From Neodothiora populina (lineage: Eukaryota), in contig NW_027191409.1 of NCBI RefSeq assembly GCF_041146345.1, positions 620,001-684,000 on the forward strand: a stretch of DNA of 64,000 bases, read 5' to 3'. This document shows, piece by piece, positions 1-11,037 of the stretch. Under the pieces are notes generated by a model. The model saw only the letters and a program-made list of their open reading frames with translations, had not been told where the DNA came from and did not search any database. Numbering within the stretch: the first letter of the stretch is position 1; each line of letters opens with the position of its first letter. The position numbers and the translations under genes are program-made.

Positions 1-256
1 GCGGAATGTCCAACAGTACCGTAGTTGCACCTCTCACACTCACTTCGAGGTACTTCGATTGGATCCGGAGATATTGAGGCGCATCAATCATTGGACATCT
101 CAATCATGAACTAGTGTGGTCTGTGTGTTGTGATATAGACTACGTGGCGATCAGCTTGATATTGGCTGTGAAAAGTTATTCGGCCTGAGTGACGATTGCG
201 CGTGGCTAGCATACTGTCTTCTTTCGAGTGGATGATCATTGAATAAGGTACTCAAC

Positions 257-1537
257 ATGCTGGCAGGGTGCTCGGTGCGTGCAAGCAGCGGGCGCATTGC
301 ACCTTCAAATCTTACTGCGATCAGACGTGTAAATGCTCGTCTATCAACACTGGCATATTCTTCACAGCCCTACAAAGCGTCTAGATCACCGGCGAGACAT
401 CTGGCCCTAGCCTCTATATCATCATCGTCGTCGTGCCGACCTCAGAGTGCATTAAAAGCAGCTTCGCTACCGCTACAATCGCCACACCGTTCCATTCGAC
501 TTGCATCTTCCCAAGGATCTGCACTTCCTTCAAAGAACGACACTGATGTGCCTGCTCCGTACACGCCGCCGACCACCGGACTCTTGTCATACTTGCCCGC
601 TCGTGCTGTTCCATATGCCGAGCTTGTGCGCCTCGACAAGCCTGTAGGCACCTACTATCTCTTTCTTCCATGCGTCTTCGGCACCCTCCTCGCTGCACCT
701 TTGGTGAATCCCATCGCATCGCCCGCTTCTGTGCTGGGCTACTCGGCGCTCTTCCTTGCGGGAGCGGGAATCATGCGCGGTGCAGGGTGCACCATCAACG
801 ATCTCTGGGACCGTGATTTCGATCCTCAGGTGTCGAGAACGCGACTGAGGCCGATCGCTAGACGAGCAGTCACTCTCCAGGCTGCCCTTGTTTTCACCGG
901 TGTGCAACTTCTTGCCGGACTGGGTATTCTGTTGCAATTCCCCATACAGTGCCTGTACTACGGCGTACCATCGTTAGTACTCGTGGCTCTGTATCCGCTG
1001 GCGAAGAGAGTGACGTACTATCCGCAGGCCGTGCTTGGCCTAGCTTATTCTTGGGGTGCGATCATGGGGTTCCCGACCATGGGGGTTGATCTGCTGTCGA
1101 ATACTGCCGCGTTGCAGGCAGCGGGATGCTTGTATGCGTCCAGCATCGCATGGACCATCATGTATGACATGATATATGCACACCAGGACATCAAAGACGA
1201 TGCCAAAGCAGGCATCAAGTCAATCGCTCTAGCCCATGAAAATGAGACCAAGTACGTGCTGAGCGGTCTCGCCGTGACCCAAACATCTCTGCTTGCAGCG
1301 GCAGGTATCGCAGCGGGTGCCGGGCCACTGTACTTTATCGGAAGCTGTGGCGGTGCAGCTTTGACCACCGGGTACATGATCTGGAAGGTGAATCTGAAGA
1401 GCGTCGAAGACTGCTGGTGGTGGTTCCGCCACAGCTGTTGGTTCACTGGAGGAGCGATCACGTTGGGTCTCGCAGCAGACTATCTGGCGAAGTACTTTGA
1501 TGAGAGTAATGACGCTGACGAGCCTGTCACTTCGTGA
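257..1537 (+). CDS. COQ2: 4-hydroxybenzoate polyprenyltransferase, mitochondrial (UbiA family)
   Basis: Intronless ORF from ATG 257. Contains RLDKP.G, GAGCTINDLWDRDFD..V.RT..RP, YPLAKRVTYYPQ and YDMIYAHQD..DD.KAGIKS motifs. The N-terminus is Arg/Ser-rich like a mitochondrial presequence. Confidence 0.96.
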   Translation: MLAGCSVRASSGRIAPSNLTAIRRVNARLSTLAYSSQPYKASRSPARHLALASISSSSSCRPQSALKAASLPLQSPHRSIRLASSQGSALPSKNDTDVPAPYTPPTTGLLSYLPARAVPYAELVRLDKPVGTYYLFLPCVFGTLLAAPLVNPIASPASVLGYSALFLAGAGIMRGAGCTINDLWDRDFDPQVSRTRLRPIARRAVTLQAALVFTGVQLLAGLGILLQFPIQCLYYGVPSLVLVALYPLAKRVTYYPQAVLGLAYSWGAIMGFPTMGVDLLSNTAALQAAGCLYASSIAWTIMYDMIYAHQDIKDDAKAGIKSIALAHENETKYVLSGLAVTQTSLLAAAGIAAGAGPLYFIGSCGGAALTTGYMIWKVNLKSVEDCWWWFRHSCWFTGGAITLGLAADYLAKYFDESNDADEPVTS

Positions 1538-2364
1538 GGGACGTTCGAATCTGGCGGCCATGTATGATTAGACACTCGTACTGTTGATAGGCAGCAAAAC
1601 CGTATTCCCTCGCCGGAAGTCCGTACATGTTCGACCTCTTCGACTCGGCGCCGAACAATAGACTTGGCGGGATAGCTGCTGACAAGTACCCATGCAGTGA
1701 ACAGGCGGGCGAAGAAGCATCGCATCCATTGTCCCTCTTCTTCCTTCTCTTTACATCCGGAACGTGCAGTGTGGCAAAATGCCTATAGACTCGGCAGACT
1801 TGGCGATTTGCGAAGAAACGGAGGAGCGCGGCTCAAAACGACGAGGACGTGATTCCCGAATGGATGGCTGGAACAAATCCTACTCTTTTATATATTCATT
1901 CATATGTTGCCGCGTAAACATCACTCGTCCTTCTTTTTCATGTTTTCATATTTTCATGGCATGATGTTCTCCTTTTGTCTCGCGCGATACCTCTTGACTC
2001 TTTGGCACTTTCTCTTGTCTGTTCCTTTCACTTTTTTGCGGATATATTCTCCCAGTGTTTCCGTCACATCAGATCCTGCGAAGCTTCTTTTCTTGTCTCT
2101 TCCTGTTCTTGTTTCTAAAACCAAATATAATTTTTCTCTGGAAACATGCCTAGAACGTGAAAACTTTGTCTCAAAAGTAGTGAAGCATGCAACAAAAGAC
2201 CAGTCGCGAAATTCTGCTTGTCCCCGTCTCCTCTCATGATGCCGTGCCCCGTAATCTTTCCCGAGTTTAGTAAAATCGCTGTCGCTCGCTTTCTTGCGAG
2301 ACGGCAAGAAGGTAGGTCTTGGCTGGTTAGAAGTAAACTTCGAGGTCATGTATCAGGATGTTCT

Positions 2365-3116
2365 TCAGTAAGGCGAGTAGCCTCTACCGCGACCACCACG
2401 GTAGCCTCCGCGGTAACTATGGATTTCGTCAGCATCTCTGCAAAGTCCTGAGAGGGCGCGAAGGTAGCACTTACCCTCCTCCACGAGGAGGATATGGAGG
2501 CGCGCCGTAGCCTCCGCGACCACCGTACATGGGTGGAGGGCCGTAGGCACCGGGTGGGCCACCGCGACCGCGGGGACCTCCACGGCCACCACGACCACCT
2601 CTGTTCATACCAGGCAGGTTGGTGCGCTTTGGGACAACCTAGTTGGGATATCGGTAAGTATGGTGTTATGCTTTGGGGATGTGCGAACGAGGCGTGACTG
2701 ACTTTGAGGTTGCGACCGCGGAAAAGACTCTCGTTCAGGACGATGGCATTGTTAACCAAGCTGGGCTCCTGGAACTCGACATAGGCGTAGCCCTTGGGGT
2801 GGCCGGTGAATTTGTCGAGCAGGATAGTGACACGATTGATGTTGCCACAACTTTGGAAGTGAGCTTGGATCTCCTCGGGCGATGCGCCATAGTCAACGTT
2901 GCCAACGAAGATGCTCCGCGCATCAATGTCTTCCTTGTTCTCGCGCAGCCCCTCCTGTTGCTGGTCCAGACTGGCCTGCATCTCACGGAGCTTTGCTGCC
3001 TCGGCTTCCATCTCTTGCACTCTTTTCTTCATGGCTGCGATTTCAGCCTCGTCCTGGTTGTCATCTTCGGGAACCTCGACAGGCTCCTCCTCACGAGGGA
3101 CACCGTTGTCGGACAT
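2365..3116 (-). CDS. PAB2: Nuclear poly(A)-binding protein 2 (PABPN1/Pab2/Sgn1 family)
   Basis: Acidic N-terminus, coiled coil ([19 protein letters not shown]), RRM (SIFVGNVDY...KGYAYVEF) and RGG tail ending [12 protein letters not shown] introns at 2639-2702 and 2417-2474 restore the frame. Confidence 0.95.
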
Positions 3117-4418
3117 GGCGAGCGTGTGTTAAGGATTGAATACGATGTGCAAGTTGATCGTCTGTATAATCGGTCAGATGCATTGCGCGATATGACGAAA
3201 CAAGTAGTATGGTGTCGAGGATGCAGGGGAAGACGCGACGGGCCAGCAATGTCCATCACGTAGAACGACGGAAACGTCTCTATATCGTGCTGCGCATGCG
3301 CTTTATATCCTGTACGTACTGTTCTGGATACAAGTGGCACGATTTGCGGATGGCGAGTGACCAAATTTGTGGGCTCAAATATGGACAGCGGAGATGAAAA
3401 TCGATGAAAGTGAGATGATTGCGCAATGGATGGGTAAATTGATAATGGATGATGGATGGCGCTTGACCAAGATGGAGTCAATGATGGAAATGGATGGCCA
3501 AGCCCTGTCCCGTATTGTACCTGTAACTGTGCCTGATTGTGTGCGCGTAGATATAATTATAAAAGTCAAGGAGAGGTAAGGTGGCCAAGGGGTAACAGTG
3601 TAACAATAGTAGAGCAACAAGAACTCCCGTGTCACACGTGCAGCTGCTGTGTGTACCTACTTCAACAATCACTGCTACAACAATGACAATAAATCATGCC
3701 TCCCATTATTCCACCTCAATCTGCCCGTCCTTGAACGTCGCCTCGGCCTTCTGCGCTTGACCATTCAAGATTCCCGCACTTGTGGGGAAAGATGAAAGAT
3801 ACTCGGTTCGCTCCAAATTTATCTCCAATCTCCACCAATGACTCGAATGCTACAGTACAAGTACCTTGCAGTCGCTATACCAAGGTAGGCTGTTGTCTTA
3901 CAGTACATCGTGCTACGCTGTAGTGATGGTGTAGCATCTCATCTTATCACTGCTGTCACTGCGCATCGCTTGTTTCTCGACCTTGATTGCGGGTCTGTAT
4001 GCTGTCATATCCCGCATGATTCTTGTTTGCCTGAAGGGTTCTCCCGCGCAGCCGATATAGTAGGCAGGTAGTGTACTTGGATCTTCAAAGGCGGTGTAAC
4101 AGATCTTGTTGCATGGGAGCGTTCTTCTTTTGTTCTCGTAGATCAACCTCGAATTTCTTCAGTGAGAGTATTCCAAAACACTGTTTGAACTCAGATCGAC
4201 ATCCATACCTGAATCAGCTCATCTATCGCCACTTGTGAAGCACTTGCAGTACTTGATTTACCCCAAGCGCCCTTGGAAGGAGCGATCGAAGCCTACCCAC
4301 TCAAACACCATACCTACCCAAATCACATCTGATACCTCTCGCCAGCAAACCAAGTCTTGAAACCTCCTCACCACCTTGTTCGTAGCCCATCAACCCGACT
4401 ACCACAACAACTCTCATC

Positions 4419-5100
4419 ATGGACCAACAACAAGAACAAGAAGAAGAACGGCAATCCCTCCTCCCCTCCTCCCCATCAACAGACTACGCGCCCCCTCCCT
4501 CGCCCATCCTGCCGCGCCTACGCAAAAAGACCAAGTCCTTCCTCGATTCCAAATGGGGCCACTACTCGATCCTACTACTGGTGAGCCTCGACGTAACGAG
4601 CATCTTCGCAGAGTTCATCGTGCAGATCTTCACGTGCGAGGGCAGGATCGAACGCGCAGAGGGGGAAACGACTCTCGAGGCGCTGAGTGTTGTCGGGTTG
4701 GTGTTTTCGTGCGTGTTTGTGCTGGAGCTGGGGCTTTCGCTTTGGACGCTTGGGTTCAGGTATGTGATTCTTTTTCTGATGCTGTCCTCTCCGAGAATAT
4801 ATATGTATATTTCGAGTACGTCTGCTTAGACTTCTTTTTTGCGACAAAAACAGTTATTTCCATTCCAAATTCCGCTGCTTCGACGCCGTTGTCATCCTGA
4901 CAAGCTTCGTCATCGACGTCTTGCTGCGCGGCGTGCTCGAGGAAGTCGCCTCGATAGTCATCGTGCTGCGCTTGTGGCGCGTCTTCAAGATCATCGAGGA
5001 GCTGGGCGTGTCGGCCCAGGATCACATGGAGGAGCTGCAGACGCGTCTCGAGGCTGCCGAGAAGGAAAACGATAGGTTGCGGCGGGAGTTGGACAAGTGA
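4419..5100 (+). CDS. Voltage-gated proton channel Hv1 (voltage-sensor-only protein)
   Basis: Two exons (intron 4760-4853). S1 Asp (LVSLDV), S2 F..E, S3 FDAVVI...IDV, S4 signature LRLWRVFKII, C-terminal coiled coil, and no pore domain. Confidence 0.88.
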
Positions 5101-5307: not shown

Positions 5308-7663
5308 TCAAAAAGTCATCCTGCCAGCAGGCCCAACCCGCGTAGTGCTCATCAGCATATTGGCAAGGCAGGCATCGTTTTCCTCTTGTATCTGGGGTTT
5401 GTGTCGGTCACTTTCGTCCTGACCAATCCCTCGTAACACCTGCATTGGTTTGCCGGCGACCACTGTGTTTGCACGCACGTCCTAGAAGGTACCGTCAGCG
5501 ATGTGTACTCTCATGCCAGCTCCTTTCTGAAACGTCACAATCTCACCTTTGTCACTACCGTGTCGGCGCCTATGACACTGCCTTTCCTGATTGTGCGAAA
5601 AGGCAAGATGGTTACATTGCCGCCGATCCAGCAGTCTTCCTCGATCGTGATGCTTCCACCATACCGCAGGCCCTGGGAGCCATTGCGCAGCTTCGGGTCT
5701 ATGGGCGCCGTCATGCCGTAGAACTTGACATTGGGTCCAATGACGGTCCGACTGCCTATGGTGATTTTGCAGGGGTCGAGCATGACGCAGCCTGCGCCAA
5801 TCACCACGTTGTCGCCGATGTTGATATTGTAGCCGTATTGGCAGCTGAATGGCGCTTCCACTATCACTCCGCTTCCGCAGGACCCGATCGGCTCGTTGGG
5901 TCCGAGCCATTTCGGCTGTAGGATGTTCAAGAAGCGCTCGAGGCGCTCTCGGGGGCCCGAGCCATTGGATGCTAGACAGCACTTGTTGTAGCGCTCTAGA
6001 CTCAACTTGCATTCATTGCGCTCGTTTAGGAGTTGCTCGTCGGTGTAATGACGGTACAGCCTTCCCATGAGCATCTTGACCTTTTCAGTGACCAACGGGC
6101 CGACGTATCGGGGTTCTTCGCTGGTTCTCTCGTTGCCGTATGATCCGGCATTTATCCTGAATTTGCTGATGCCGTTGTTACTCGCAGTTGTCGAAGCATA
6201 TGCGGAATCATGACGGGGTGAGACGCCAGACGGTGGCTCTGTCATGGACGGATTGTGCGCTGAAGCGGTGCTGGCTAAATGGGCGTGATACGCATGATGA
6301 GGCACAGAGTCGCGGTCTGCGTGGATTATCTCGGTCGGCTTGGGCCAAGGTGTGTACGGGGCTGCTAATTGTGGTTCTTGCTGAAGTTGTCGCGATCCCT
6401 CCATTGGGGACAGAGTTGTTTGTTGGCTACTTGACCTTTCTGGTTCCTGCATGACGGTTGTGCTAGAAGGATTACGCAGCGATAGTCAGCGCCACTTCCT
6501 GAGATTCTGCGCGGGATCCCCTCCCACGCAACATGAGAGATGTACTAACGATGGGTATTGATTGAGGGTGTTGAACGTAGAAATCGAAGCGACTTTGCTA
6601 GCGATCACTCGTTGTGGTTTATGCGATCGAGTAGCGAGTAGGGCCTTGGGCCCGTAACCGTCGCAAGGGAAGCCGCCTCGGATGCAATTGTTACAGATCG
6701 GTTTGGTTTCATCACATTTCTTCTTGCGACGCCGACAGGTACTATACGATACACTCTCAGTAAGATTCCTAGCCAATACTTCACAATTTTATCATCTCTC
6801 GCTGTAACCACAAAAAGAAGTGAGACTCACTGGCACCCTGTCTTTGTTCGTTGCGAAAATATCCTTTTTCGAACTGGCTTCCTTTGCTGGCCCGGCTGAT
6901 CTAGGGAAGGATTGTTTCGTGGAGTATCCTCGTCGCTGTGTTGTCGATGGTCTTCGTATCCCTCCGGATGACTACCCTCGTCATCGTCATCGCGCGAATA
7001 GTTGTCCTCATGGGCGCGGAGGTTGTGCTGCAGATTCTCGGCGAGCAGCTTGTCTGCGTCATCTGTCTGGTCTGGGCCATGAGCCCATTGAGGAGTTCTG
7101 CTCATCAAATTAGCAGGGTAGTAAAGCTTCAGTATGCATGAATTGGCATACTTGATCGAAGTTGAAGTGGCGCTGCCAGCATTGTCACCAGTGCGGGTAG
7201 GGACATGATCCGGGCCTTTGGTTGTACTCAGGGGTCGTTCTTGTTCTACCACTTCGGCTGGAGGCGATACTTGTAGACCACGCTGTTTTGGAGATCTGCT
7301 TGGACTCGATGACCTGGGTGATCGTTTTCGCTTTCCCGGATTATATCTTGGCTGATTTGAAGCCTCCCTTTCATAGGTCACAATCGCACCTTGTTCGCGC
7401 GCGTACGGTGCTTCTTCTCCCACTGCGACATGTGGTCGGATGCGGCTGTGGGAAGGATTCTCCGTTGTCTCTTTATTTGATGATATCTGGTGGATGCTGC
7501 TGTGCAGCTCGGTATGCTCTGGCCGAAAAGAGGTCACACGAGATAGTGGTGGACTAGTACGATTGACAGGAGTAAATTGAACAGCCGAGGATGTCTGCCG
7601 TCGGCCATCACTGTCGCGAAAATTGAAATCTTCAGATCGTGGCGCATGTTCTACGTCCGCCAT
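5308..7663 (-). CDS. Zn(II)2Cys6 transcription factor fused to a maltose/galactoside O-acetyltransferase-like (Mac + hexapeptide LbH) domain
   Basis: Spliced model with introns at 7098-7151, 6742-6830, 6463-6549 and about 5482-5546. It gives RTKTGCHTCRRRKKKCDETKPICNNCIRGGFPC followed in frame by EKVKMLMG..Y, VEAPFSCQYGYNINIG, IGPNV, DCWIGGNV and VVTKDV...VVAGKP. Confidence 0.88.
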
Positions 7664-10077
7664 GGTATCTCACTGTCGCAGTAAAGCTGCTGCTAGCTCC
7701 CGCGCATGGATTCGGATCTGCACCCTGGTTTGCAGCTCGTGGAATAGCGCTGTGCTGGCAAAGTACTATAGAGGCCAAAGATGCCTTATATGCTTTATGC
7801 GAAGCAGCCACTTCCCTCTCCAGTGTATCAGTGCCAGGGCCGGCTATGGAGTAGATGACTACAAGGCGGATATGTATATTGTGAACAGAGCACCAGGGAG
7901 GCAGGACTTTGTGGGGGAAGGAAGGAGGATTCGGGGGATGAAATGGAGACTGGGAGACAAAGGAAGTGGACAAGACGGAGCAGTGGGGTGAGGATGGACA
8001 GCATGAAGCGCGTTGATATGCCGGCGCAATATCAGGTGCAGAATCATCAAAGAAGCTGCGCTCTCGCACGTGTGATGGCTGTGTGTTTCTGACTTCTGAT
8101 AACGCTGCAAGGTGAAAAGGCGAGGAACTCTGACTTGCCAACCTACCCGCTATACAGGCGCCACCGGCATTATTGGATTCCTACAGATCAGCCTGCGGGC
8201 GCTTGATGTGAAATGGCACTGAGTATTGGCCCGCGATAGGCGGATTGGGATATGTTCGGCACAAACAGATGGTAGGGTAACCTTTGCTGGTACAGTGGGT
8301 TGCATATCATGGTGATGTCTTGGTCACGCACGTACCCAGCATACGGTGCGATAGGTGGCGGCGAAGCGCCGGTAAGGACCACCACCTCATGTATTTGACG
8401 CGAATGCCGCCAGGACAGCGCGCCTGGCGTCCCTGGTCTCCCTTTTGTTGCGTTTGTATGCACGTGCGACCTGATCGGGAAAGAGTTCGAGTGCATGCAT
8501 TTCGTCGAGCGACCAATGGGAAGGGCCAGACAGCTGAACCTGCAGCTGGCGGTGGAGCAAGAACAATTGATTACCCCATGATGCAACTATATATATTAGC
8601 ATCTCTAGCTCACGGGACACGTTCATCAAGACGTGACACTATACTGTACATGCATAGCCAGGAGCATTGCTACCATCGTGTCAACTGGCGTGCCGTGGAG
8701 ATGGTCGAGTACAAAAATACATGTTCGGTCTTTCATCCCTTCGGCAGAAGTGTTCGTGCGCACAAATAGCGGGATTCGACAGGTCTGTCATGGCGCGCAG
8801 TAAGCGCTCGCTGACGAGACGGTAGCCAGTGATGCTGCGATGTGCCGCCAGGTCATCTCGTTCGGTTTGCGAAGGAATGCATGATGGGGCAGGGCGACAA
8901 CTTTTCGGCATATTGTCATAGACGCGGTGGTCCGGTGCGTGAAGTGTCCCTCTGGCCTTTTAGTGCACTTGGGGGCCACCCAATGGAGTGCGAGGGCCTC
9001 GCTCGCATACTCGAACGGACTGGCATGTCTTTAGCGAGACGTGTGCTGTGCAGTCCAGGGGTCTGCCTAGCAGACGATATGCTTACAACATGACACTTCT
9101 TGTAGTGCCAGTATGCTGCAGCGAATCATCGTTGCGGTCAGCCGCCGTGACAACCACGGCTCTCCTCATGCTCGCTTGAGAAGATGCGAGCTGGAGCGAG
9201 CCAGGCGCCCTCGCTATATCAATGAAAAATTGTATGGAGTAGCCATGTGTGCTTGCACATACTCCGCAGTAGAGTGATACCGTGCCGTACCGCACATCTC
9301 TACGCTACTGCTGGCAAGCACTATCTAGTTCAGCATGCGCGTCTAATGAGCTACCATATCGGGAAAAGTGCTCGACGCATTGTGCAGTATTGTGCTTGTA
9401 CACCATGATGCTTTATAGTGCTTCATATGCAGTCCTGTGCCATGTAGTACACACACATACTACATTGTACTGCACGCCCAGGTTGGATTAATGCGAGGGA
9501 GGGAGTTCGGAGACGCATTCCGAGCACGAGCAAGAAACGCTCGCATTCATGCATCACATTCAGGCCAAGGCGATCGTCGAGATTGTCGAGTTCCTCAATC
9601 GCCTTTTTGTGATTCAACACGTGGAAGTGGACAGCCACGTCTATGGAGACGTGATCTAGATGGCAAGATAAGCTAAGAGGTGTCCAAGCTATGTTATAGG
9701 AGAGAGGGATGTTTGATGTCGGAAATTGTACCACGAATATGGTCGTGGCTTATACTTGCACGGGAGATGTGTCATATCATCGTTTTACACGGCGGGTGAT
9801 CATCGGGAGATCTGTTTGCCCGGAGAAAGACTTGCCTGGTAAAGTAATGGTATAGCCAGCCATAGTGTATCCTCTGGCCTTCACATTTCGCTGGCCCCGT
9901 CGAAACCCTGACCAGCCTGCGACTATACACAGAATAAAAGGCACCCGGAGCAGATCGAGCGTCAGAAGTGTACGCTCCGCAGTCACCGCCAAGTTCGTGT
10001 CTCAAGCCACTGAACACTTTTTTGCTGCAAAGCAACATCATCATCGCCCGATTCCCACATAGCAATTGGAAAGCACA

Positions 10078-11037
10078 ATGCCGCCATTCGCCTCGCAAGC
10101 ATCAGTAGCAGCAATGGCGCTGTTGCAGACCCCATCCTTCCTCCTGCCATCCGGCGTGCTACCGACGACATTCACGAGAACGATCAAGACACTCAACCCC
10201 AAGATCCGCCCCAGCCGATTCAACACTGGCCTCGACCTGCCCGTACTCGGGGCCTCGTCCTCGGCCGCTCTCGAGAGAAAATCATACACGCTGCCTCGAC
10301 GCACCGGCGCATTGGCTACCAAGAAGGGCATGACTGCGCTGTACGACCCGGAGACCGCCAAGCGAGTCCCTTGCACCGTCCTCCAGCTCGACAGAGTCCA
10401 GGTGGTATCACACAAGACACGCGACAAGCATGGTTACTGGGCAGTCCAAGTCGGCGCTGGAACAAAAGAGCCGCGCAATGTGACGAGGCCAGAGAGGGGT
10501 CATTTTGCTGCTAATGGTGTGGCGCTGAAACGTCACGTGCAAGAGTTCAGAGTCAAGGACGCTTCAGGCCTGCTCGAGGTCGGCTCCGTCATCAATGCCG
10601 ACTGGTTCAAGGAAGGTCAATATGTCGATGCCAGAGCAAACAGCAGAGGTATGGGTTTCACCGGTGGTATGAAGAGATGGGGCTTCAGCGGTCAGCCCGC
10701 GAGTCACGGTAACAGTTTGGCGCACAGAATCATGGGTAGTTCTGGTGCATCGCAAGGAAGTGGAAGCAGAGTCTTGCCAGGCAAGAAAATGCCTGGAAAC
10801 ATGGGTGCCACTCAGATCACCGTACAGAACCTGCGCGTTCTGAAGGTCGATGCCGCGAATGGTATCGTCGTTGTCCATGGTATGTCTGCCTTTTTCACTA
10901 ATTGTCCGCTGCGTTTGTTCTTCCCATTGGCTGACTGAGTTTTCTTTGCAGGCAGTGTGAGTGGACCGAAGGGTTGCATCGTGAAGCTCCAGGATGCGAT
11001 AAAGAGGCCAAACCAGCCTCTCCTTGCTGAGTCATAG
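10078..11037 (+). CDS. MRPL9: Mitochondrial large-subunit ribosomal protein uL3m
   Basis: KKGMT, VPCTVLQ, GMGFTGGMKRWGF, SHGNSLAHR and PGKKMPGNMG motifs. Intron 10880-10951 joins to GSVSGPKG. Confidence 0.95.

Follow-up and report, generated by a model that had tools for sequence, protein, structure and literature searches.

The 64,000-nucleotide stretch of the Neodothiora populina genome analyzed here (the window) carries, at positions 5308..7663 on the minus strand, the N. populina orthologue of FF-7 of Neurospora crassa, Bcin04g03490 of Botrytis cinerea and FGSG_10069 of Fusarium graminearum, a gene whose product joins a Zn2Cys6 cluster to a domain of the maltose/galactoside O-acetyltransferase type from which the catalytic residues have been lost. 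One of the long homologues of the window protein, P0028, heads a cluster containing XP_024548305.1 (BCIN_04g03490 in B. cinerea B05.10). FF-7 (NCU04001) and FGSG_10069 are named as orthologues of Bcin04g03490, with developmental knockout phenotypes, in PMC8079791, and it is on that paper that the orthology with FF-7 rests.

The gene model, built from the raw sequence and a motif search, comprises a coding sequence of 2061 nucleotides in five exons, with the ATG at 7661-7663 and the stop codon at 5308-5310, all on the minus strand. It encodes a protein of 686 amino acids that is identical, letter for letter, with P0001, the NCBI hypothetical protein AAFC00_003552 of N. populina. Exon 1 (7152..7663) encodes an N-terminal region that is predicted to be disordered and carries FTPVN and KRKR motifs; exon 2 (6831..7097) encodes disordered sequence, acidic and basic, with the first Cys of the zinc cluster at its end; exon 3 (6550..6741) contributes the remainder of the cluster and the start of the linker; exon 4 (5547..6462) contains a disordered linker (Pfam Mac_assoc in relatives), the Mac cap and the bulk of the LbH; and exon 5 (5308..5481) supplies the final LbH strand (VVAGKP), the C-terminal helix and the stop codon. 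The four introns measure 54, 89, 87 and 65 nucleotides, and every one has GT..AG borders and a CTRAC-like branch site. Intron 2 (6742..6830) interrupts the zinc cluster after Cys259, within the codon CA|T of His260, and intron 4 (5482..5546; GTGAGA..GCTGAC..TAG) interrupts the LbH. Intron 3 (6463..6549; GTTAGT..GCTGAC..TAG) is in frame and holds one internal TGA, also in frame, and splicing is therefore required to join the two domains. The first-pass annotation of this DNA had proposed that splicing fuses a complete Zn2Cys6 domain in frame to a Mac/LbH domain, and the agreement of the gene model with P0001 bears this out; as read from the sequence, the gene model of the window is a fused one. 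Intron 1 (7098..7151; GTATGC..CTAAT..CAG) is in frame and has no stop codon; if retained, it would insert 18 residues in the disordered N terminus and leave the frame open. The only sequencing run found, none being on record as RNA, is probably of DNA and is uninformative on splicing and expression; it yielded contigs over 6840-7002 and 7022-7370, the second of which runs uninterrupted through this intron.

Pfam searches of the window protein recognized three domains and no others: Zn_clus (E 4e-9), Mac (E 4e-5 to 8e-5) and Hexapep (E 2e-13 to 3e-12). The binuclear cluster itself occupies residues 257-290 (6651..6841, across intron 2; Zn_clus E 4.3e-9), its cysteines being C259, C262, C269, C276, C279 and C286, with intron 2 between the first and the second. 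The cluster is central in the protein, within a conserved flanking sequence, KRxFSxRTKTGCxTCRRRKKKCDE, that the window protein matches, and in a 39-sequence alignment that includes Bcin04g03490 the segment K248-Y289 is largely invariant. In an AlphaFold2 model computed with the 39-member alignment, the predicted local distance difference test score (pLDDT) is about 81-86 for the zinc cluster and mostly >90 for residues 450-650, and it is <50 for 371 residues, all of 292-433 included. The model contains no helix after the zinc cluster in residues 290-450, and the Pfam search (E up to 0.001) gave no Fungal_trans (PF04082) match in the window protein. The cluster itself is like those of Gal4-type factors, but its central instead of N-terminal location, the absence of a predicted following helix or coiled coil and the absence of Fungal_trans set the window protein apart from them. 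Gal4-type factors recognize paired CGG triplets. In contrast, chromatin immunoprecipitation sequencing (ChIP-seq) with the tagged full-length FF7 orthologue identified 2756 sites and an AAGCGC/AACCGC motif, the reported motif being a single AAGCGC-like hexamer (PMC4378982). Within the otherwise disordered N-terminal region, the window protein has FTPVN in residues 28-34, where the family consensus is SRFTAVNG, and the KRKR at residues 111-114 is invariant in the family and is perhaps a nuclear localization signal.

The Mac and LbH domain (Maa/GAT-like; residues 447-655, 5404..6095 across intron 4) is recognized by phmmer against PDB chains, by Foldseek and by pLDDT values that are mostly >90. 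Its best sequence matches in the PDB are maltose O-acetyltransferases, led by 3srt (E 2.9e-27, HMMER/phmmer), and the leading structural match is 3srt_B (Foldseek E 2e-17, template modeling score 0.92 by target, root mean square deviation 1.7), followed by 4isx, 2p2o, 1ocx and 1kru. Pfam matches to DCTN5 and LbH_EIF2B, LbH families with scaffold roles, were weak and below the cut-offs and were not used. The domain resembles Maa and LacA (3srt, 2ic7, 1ocx, 1kru) in its Mac cap and LbH, in the Trp on the coenzyme A (CoA) side, in the VVAG.P strand and in a predicted trimer, and differs from them in being fused to a DNA-binding domain and about 440 disordered residues and in lacking the equivalents of the catalytic His, Asn85, the aromatic Tyr83/Phe82 and Maa Glu125. 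When three copies of residues 445-686 were modeled together, the interface score (ipSAE) was 0.93 in each of three runs, with 0.00 for the best control, a partner pLDDT of 83-84 and a contact agreement between runs of at least 48%; in calibration, the mark used was reached by 21 of 30 self-pairs and by none of 23 single chains. In the trimer model Ala576, at the position of the catalytic His, contacts Trp602 and residue 564 of the adjoining chain, which would place the former active site between subunits, as in the enzymes.

The loss of the catalytic His is apparent in two alignments. HMMER comparison with PDB chains aligns ygmtapid of the window protein with ytayhpid of 3srt and ytathpld of 2ic7, and in a MAFFT alignment Ala576 of the window protein (codon GCG, 5706..5708) shares one column with His113 of Escherichia coli Maa and His115 of LacA. 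The sets aligned on Mac and LbH were 134 long homologues (P0001-P0134, including 14 near-identical members of the Botrytis cluster), 120 short homologues, and E. coli Maa and LacA; the 46 rows that have His in this column, namely 44 short proteins, Maa and LacA, served as the enzyme set. None of the 134 long homologues has His at this position, which is occupied instead by Leu (74), Tyr (20), Ala (20), Met (14), Val (5) or Thr (1). The column of LacA Asn85 is Asn in 39 of the 46 enzymes and in none of the 134 long homologues, which have Gly (105), Ser (24), Gln (3) or Asp (2); the window protein has Gly546 (5796..5798). At LacA Tyr83, the enzymes are aromatic in 46/46 and the long homologues mostly aliphatic (Leu 45, Ala 41, Ile 16 and Val 16, with Ser 4), the window residue being Val544, and at Maa Glu125 Glu is present in 43/46 enzymes and is replaced mainly by Asn, Ala, Gln, Ser or Tyr in the long homologues and by Arg590 in the window protein. 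The column of LacA Trp139 is Trp in all 46 enzymes and is Trp in 118 of the long homologues, Phe in 11 and Tyr in 5; the window protein has Trp602 (5628..5630, in DCWIGG). The other CoA-side residues that the window protein keeps are Lys629 (LacA Lys166) and Arg646 (LacA Arg183).

Mutational results with GAT give a measure of the importance of these positions: conversion falls by 90% with H115A, by 85% with T113A and by >20% with N85A, and Trp139, Ser142 and Pro148 are located near acetyl-CoA (PMC12775004). We infer from the residues that canonical O-acetyl transfer would be impossible for the window domain. The first-pass annotation had identified the Ala at the catalytic His position from the codon at 5706-5708, which HMMER and the MAFFT column corroborate, and had noted that the Trp of DCWIGG and the VVAG.P motif are kept, as they are in Trp602 and VVAGKP; its proposal that the domain is a pseudoenzyme is reinforced by the replacement of the His, Asn85, aromatic and Glu125 equivalents, all four, nearly throughout crown Pezizomycotina. 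It had also allowed for another His filling the active site. Residues 463-655 contain none; His462 (codon 6048..6050), the sole His in residues 441-655, lies in the Mac cap at the position of LacA Asp17 and is a candidate. This residue is common to Delphinella, a Dothideomycetes sp., Elsinoe/Sphaceloma and close fragments, and most family members have Pro in its place.

The domain is not a decaying relic. Many positions, chiefly in the Mac cap, are conserved solely in the fused family, and the LbH has invariant residues; the domain is therefore under a constraint of its own. The alleles of Bcin04g03490 include nonsense mutations along with the missense changes C330Y (zinc cluster) and Y633D and G722R (LbH) (PMC8079791). 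Tyr633 is the Tyr of CDYGYN and Gly722 the Gly of VIGAGS, residues of the fold that are conserved in both the enzymes and the fused proteins; the two substitutions show that the domain is needed, and catalysis is not thereby demonstrated.

A census of relatives was made by three routes. A search with the LbH exon for longer homologues gave 128 proteins at E up to 0.001, and the 120 of these that were listed come from Dothideo-, Leotio-, Sordario-, Lecanoro- and Eurotiomycetes, most of them having PF00172, Mac and Hexapep. A profile built from 39 full-length members was run against 1.84 billion representatives, and four of its matches with a zinc cluster have the His, one of them from Orbilia brochopaga; a word-indexed search with the O. 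brochopaga protein led to named orthologues from Orbiliomycetes and Pezizomycetes. In all, the zinc-cluster pattern and the domain occur together in 240 proteins from all Pezizomycotina classes, in agreement with the earlier remark that similar fusions exist in fungal annotations, and 21 of the 240 have the His. The early-branching orthologues, exemplified by P0396 of Orbilia oligospora and P0406 of Tuber melanosporum, have the same fusion as the window protein, with the motif RKRIFSNRTKTGCxTCRRRKKKCDE, and differ from it at the active site. His is present in 8 of 9 Orbiliomycetes proteins, 7 of which match the stand-alone fungal enzymes taken as reference (P0191, P0203, P0205) throughout the set F-x-N-F, T-H-P, Glu and Trp; in P0399 the N-F stretch is gapped, and P0401 of Arthrobotrys musiformis has Arg and Asp instead. 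Among the named Pezizomycetes members, 5/7 have His (Rhizina, Geopyxis, Pyronema, Tuber and Choiromyces), with Asn85 replaced by Glu, and the exceptions have Tyr (Ascobolus) or Arg (Terfezia); P0294, P0403 and P0393 resemble the Pezizomycetes form. To judge from these residues, the Orbiliomycetes and Pezizomycetes orthologues look catalytically competent.

Outside this early-branching set, His is found in only 5 of 221 proteins, Asn at the Asn85 column in 1 and Glu at the Glu125 column in 3. On the CoA side, the same 221 proteins have Trp (158), Phe (30) or Tyr (11) at the Trp139 column and Lys or Arg at the LacA Lys166 column in 153; of the 147 rows without a gap at the Arg183 column, 136 have Arg or Lys there. 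The five crown proteins with His are from Fonsecaea (P0317, P0388-P0390) and Chrysothrix (P0312); the two that were inspected, P0317 and P0312, have neither the Asn85 nor the Trp139 equivalent, and the His in these proteins is probably a chance reappearance and not a retention. The Sordariales relatives of FF-7 have Cys in this column. Within the family, the window protein is a divergent Dothideales member, with 32-41% full-length identity to the 38 others aligned, and it is distinguished by the Ala at the His column, the lineage-specific His462 and several departures from the consensus; it shares with FF-7, Bcin04g03490 and FGSG_10069 the disordered N terminus, central Zn2Cys6 cluster, linker and Mac and LbH domain, together with a near-identical zinc-cluster motif and membership in the same LbH clade. 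In P0313, a 659-residue protein of Aureobasidium pullulans, which we take to belong to the same order (Dothideales) as N. populina, a 5-residue deletion removes the entire His loop (KFYG-----GPDTRRY), on its sequence a further step in the decay of the old site.

The phylogeny (IQ-TREE, LG+G4) was computed from 72 domain rows after four rows of <150 residues had been skipped, the crown being represented only by the 39 alignment rows. It separates fungal from bacterial rows (100/99) and places the stand-alone fungal enzymes in one clade (99/92), sister to a clade of all 56 fused rows (90/74). Within the fused clade the crown (100/98), Orbiliomycetes (100/100) and Pezizomycetes (96/95) are each recovered, and P0001 is inside the crown clade, beside Delphinella and other Dothideomycetes. 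The tree is compatible with a single fusion event close to the base of Pezizomycotina, for which the support is moderate (90/74), and with a single loss of the catalytic set on the stem leading to the other classes, as well as with separate losses in three early-branching species. Because most early-branching orthologues still carry the His, the fusion preceded the loss of the catalytic residues. This transition from enzyme to pseudoenzyme after fusion is new with respect to the literature searched.

The interpretation that we prefer, with a probability of roughly 60%, is that the window gene encodes a regulator of the FF-7 family in which the dead domain serves as a trimerizing pseudoenzyme, with clefts that perhaps hold CoA. 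The single, mid-protein Zn2Cys6 cluster would bind DNA and the rest of the protein would be largely disordered, apart from a C-terminal Mac and LbH domain that probably descends from a fungal maltose/galactoside O-acetyltransferase. The lineage has lost the general-base His, the intermediate-stabilizing Asn and the acceptor-side aromatic residue and Glu, and has retained the domain, under strong constraint, as a probable pseudoenzyme whose most likely job is to trimerize the protein. Since the zinc cluster is not followed by a coiled coil, oligomerization and avidity for clustered sites would come from the LbH trimer, and a trivalent DNA binder would suit a motif that is a single hexamer. A ligand, whether CoA, acetyl-CoA or a partner peptide, probably still occupies the three clefts between subunits; the binding of CoA or acetyl-CoA by the window domain is plausible because Trp602, Lys629 and Arg646 are kept, whereas sensing of a sugar in the ancestral manner is unlikely, given that the residues on the acceptor side are replaced and the pocket has been remodeled. 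A partial parallel is provided by Gal3p of the yeast GAL switch, a galactokinase-like sensor that binds its ligand, lacks catalytic activity and acts on Gal80. The window domain would likewise be a noncatalytic enzyme homologue in transcriptional control, its binding of a ligand being hypothetical; unlike the window domain, Gal3p is separate from the DNA-binding domain and has a different fold, and its sensing of ligand is proven.

Several points weigh against this interpretation. Some LbH N-acetyltransferases work without a protein base, and the inactivity of the family is deduced here from its residues. A His directly follows the position of the lost one in 35 of 178 fused proteins. LacA Asp17, the position at which the window protein has His462, is among the residues selected as lying within 4 Å of ligands (PMC12775004). 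On the CoA side, the window protein has Gln643 at the position of LacA Arg180, and the residue in the Trp139 column is nonaromatic in about 20 of the 221 proteins outside the early-branching set. Relative to the consensus of the family, the window protein also has Gln532 in place of Asp, Glu480 in place of Trp, and Phe612, Arg616 and Asp624 in place of Gly. The trimerization put forward in the first-pass annotation is supported by the structural model (ipSAE 0.93), a pass that probably reflects likeness to the solved Maa/GAT trimers; the family alignment did not enter the trimer modeling.

The alternative that survives best is a working ligand sensor, as the first-pass annotation suggested, in which acetyl-CoA or CoA bound in the old groove would couple carbon and acetyl-CoA status to DNA binding or to the recruitment of partners. 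We regard it as a tentative possibility, somewhat doubtful at present. The CoA side has been kept better than the catalytic side (Trp in 158/221 compared with His in 5/221 and Asn in 1/221), the window protein keeps the three CoA-side residues named above, and expression of ff-7 in N. crassa responds to carbon source (PMC8495738). However, the same residues also belong to the fold and, in the model, to the trimer interface, some family members have lost the Trp, and Gln643 replaces an Arg of LacA in the window protein. A broader evolutionary version, which we consider unlikely, is that a DNA-tethered active acetyltransferase, the state still seen in Orbiliomycetes, gave rise on the stem of crown Pezizomycotina to a trimeric pseudoenzyme whose vacated clefts read acetyl-CoA or CoA. 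If this were true, carbon status would be wired directly into the SUB-1 and white-collar network of light response and development, and the published idea of acetylation by FF-7 and Bcin04g03490 would be wrong for most fungi.

That idea, which was raised in the Botrytis and Neurospora papers, where the domain is described as a putative O-acetyltransferase and speculated to acetylate targets (PMC8079791, PMC4378982), is the basis of a further alternative, namely that the domain still transfers acyl groups, by a noncanonical route or to a new acceptor that might be a chromatin protein. In its favor, the fold is intact, as are the Mac cap and the residues on the cofactor side, a lineage-specific His462 occupies the Asp17 position, and the full enzyme set of the Orbiliomycetes orthologues indicates that the ancestral fused protein was probably an enzyme. 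Nevertheless, we consider this improbable for the window protein: the His, Asn85 and Glu125 equivalents have been lost together; the replacement in the His column differs by class (Leu, Ala, Tyr, Met, Val, Cys), which is unexpected for a conserved catalytic site; the H115A substitution removes 90% of conversion in GAT (PMC12775004); and His462 is limited to part of Dothideomycetes. Finally, a division of the locus into two genes, a zinc-cluster protein ending at the TGA within 6463-6549 and an LbH protein starting from a Met just downstream, could be built on the in-frame, single-stop 87-nucleotide intron and the ATG that follows it at about 6451, but can be dismissed as very improbable in view of the occurrence of the fusion in 240 proteins from all Pezizomycotina classes, the canonical splice sites, the Botrytis gene model curated with RNA-seq (PMC8079791), the use of full-length tagged FF7 for chromatin immunoprecipitation (PMC4378982), and the single phenotype produced in Botrytis by loss-of-function alleles in either domain (PMC8079791).

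The role of a trimerizing pseudoenzyme bears on a regulator that is far from uncharacterized. The first-pass annotation was wrong in holding that no functional characterization of such a fusion exists, since the orthologues have been studied through knockouts, natural alleles, ChIP-seq and the partner SUB1. FF-7/Bcin04g03490 has major effects on sporulation, sclerotia, sexual development, light response and virulence. In B. cinerea, Bcin04g03490 is a major-effect locus: sporulation, sclerotia, light responses and infection are lost on its deletion and with seven natural alleles (PMC8079791). In N. crassa, FF7 is a weak co-immunoprecipitation partner of the GATA factor SUB1 (PMC4378982), and ff-7 is rhythmically expressed, targets itself and affects the period of the clock (PMC6260400, PMC8495738). 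The Botrytis paper (PMC8079791) uses none of the terms histidine, catalytic and active site, and we found no published statement that the domain is without catalytic residues, subscription journals and supplements lying outside the search. The residue census argues against the acetylation speculated for FF-7 and Bcin04g03490 and says that the canonical mechanism would be closed to almost every member that does not belong to Orbiliomycetes or Pezizomycetes, turning attention to oligomerization and to the binding of ligands or partners. The family offers a natural series for such work, consisting of enzyme-like fused proteins, forms with the His only, and dead forms.

The FF7 motif AAGCGC is not enriched in the window (43 sites compared with 34.7 expected, a count equaled or exceeded in 9 of 100 shuffles). 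Four copies at 8006-8807, within about 800 bp upstream of the gene, were considered as a sign of autoregulation and rejected as not significant given the number of possible intervals. The neighboring genes identified encode a UbiA prenyltransferase (236-1537, plus strand; E 9.5e-48), an RRM protein (RRM_1; 2346-3128, minus strand; E 2.3e-15) and a ribosomal L3-like protein (Ribosomal_L3; 10063-10938, plus strand; E 3.5e-14). With the gene described next, they are of the housekeeping type and do not form a biosynthetic cluster, which fits a global rather than a cluster-specific regulator. A small gene at about 4386-5100 on the plus strand, convergent with the FF-7 homologue, has an S4-like sequence (LRLWRVFKII) and a weak match to Ion_trans (E 3.9e-5, 23.4 bits, against a cut-off of 25), and its product resembles a voltage-sensor-only, Hv1-like channel.

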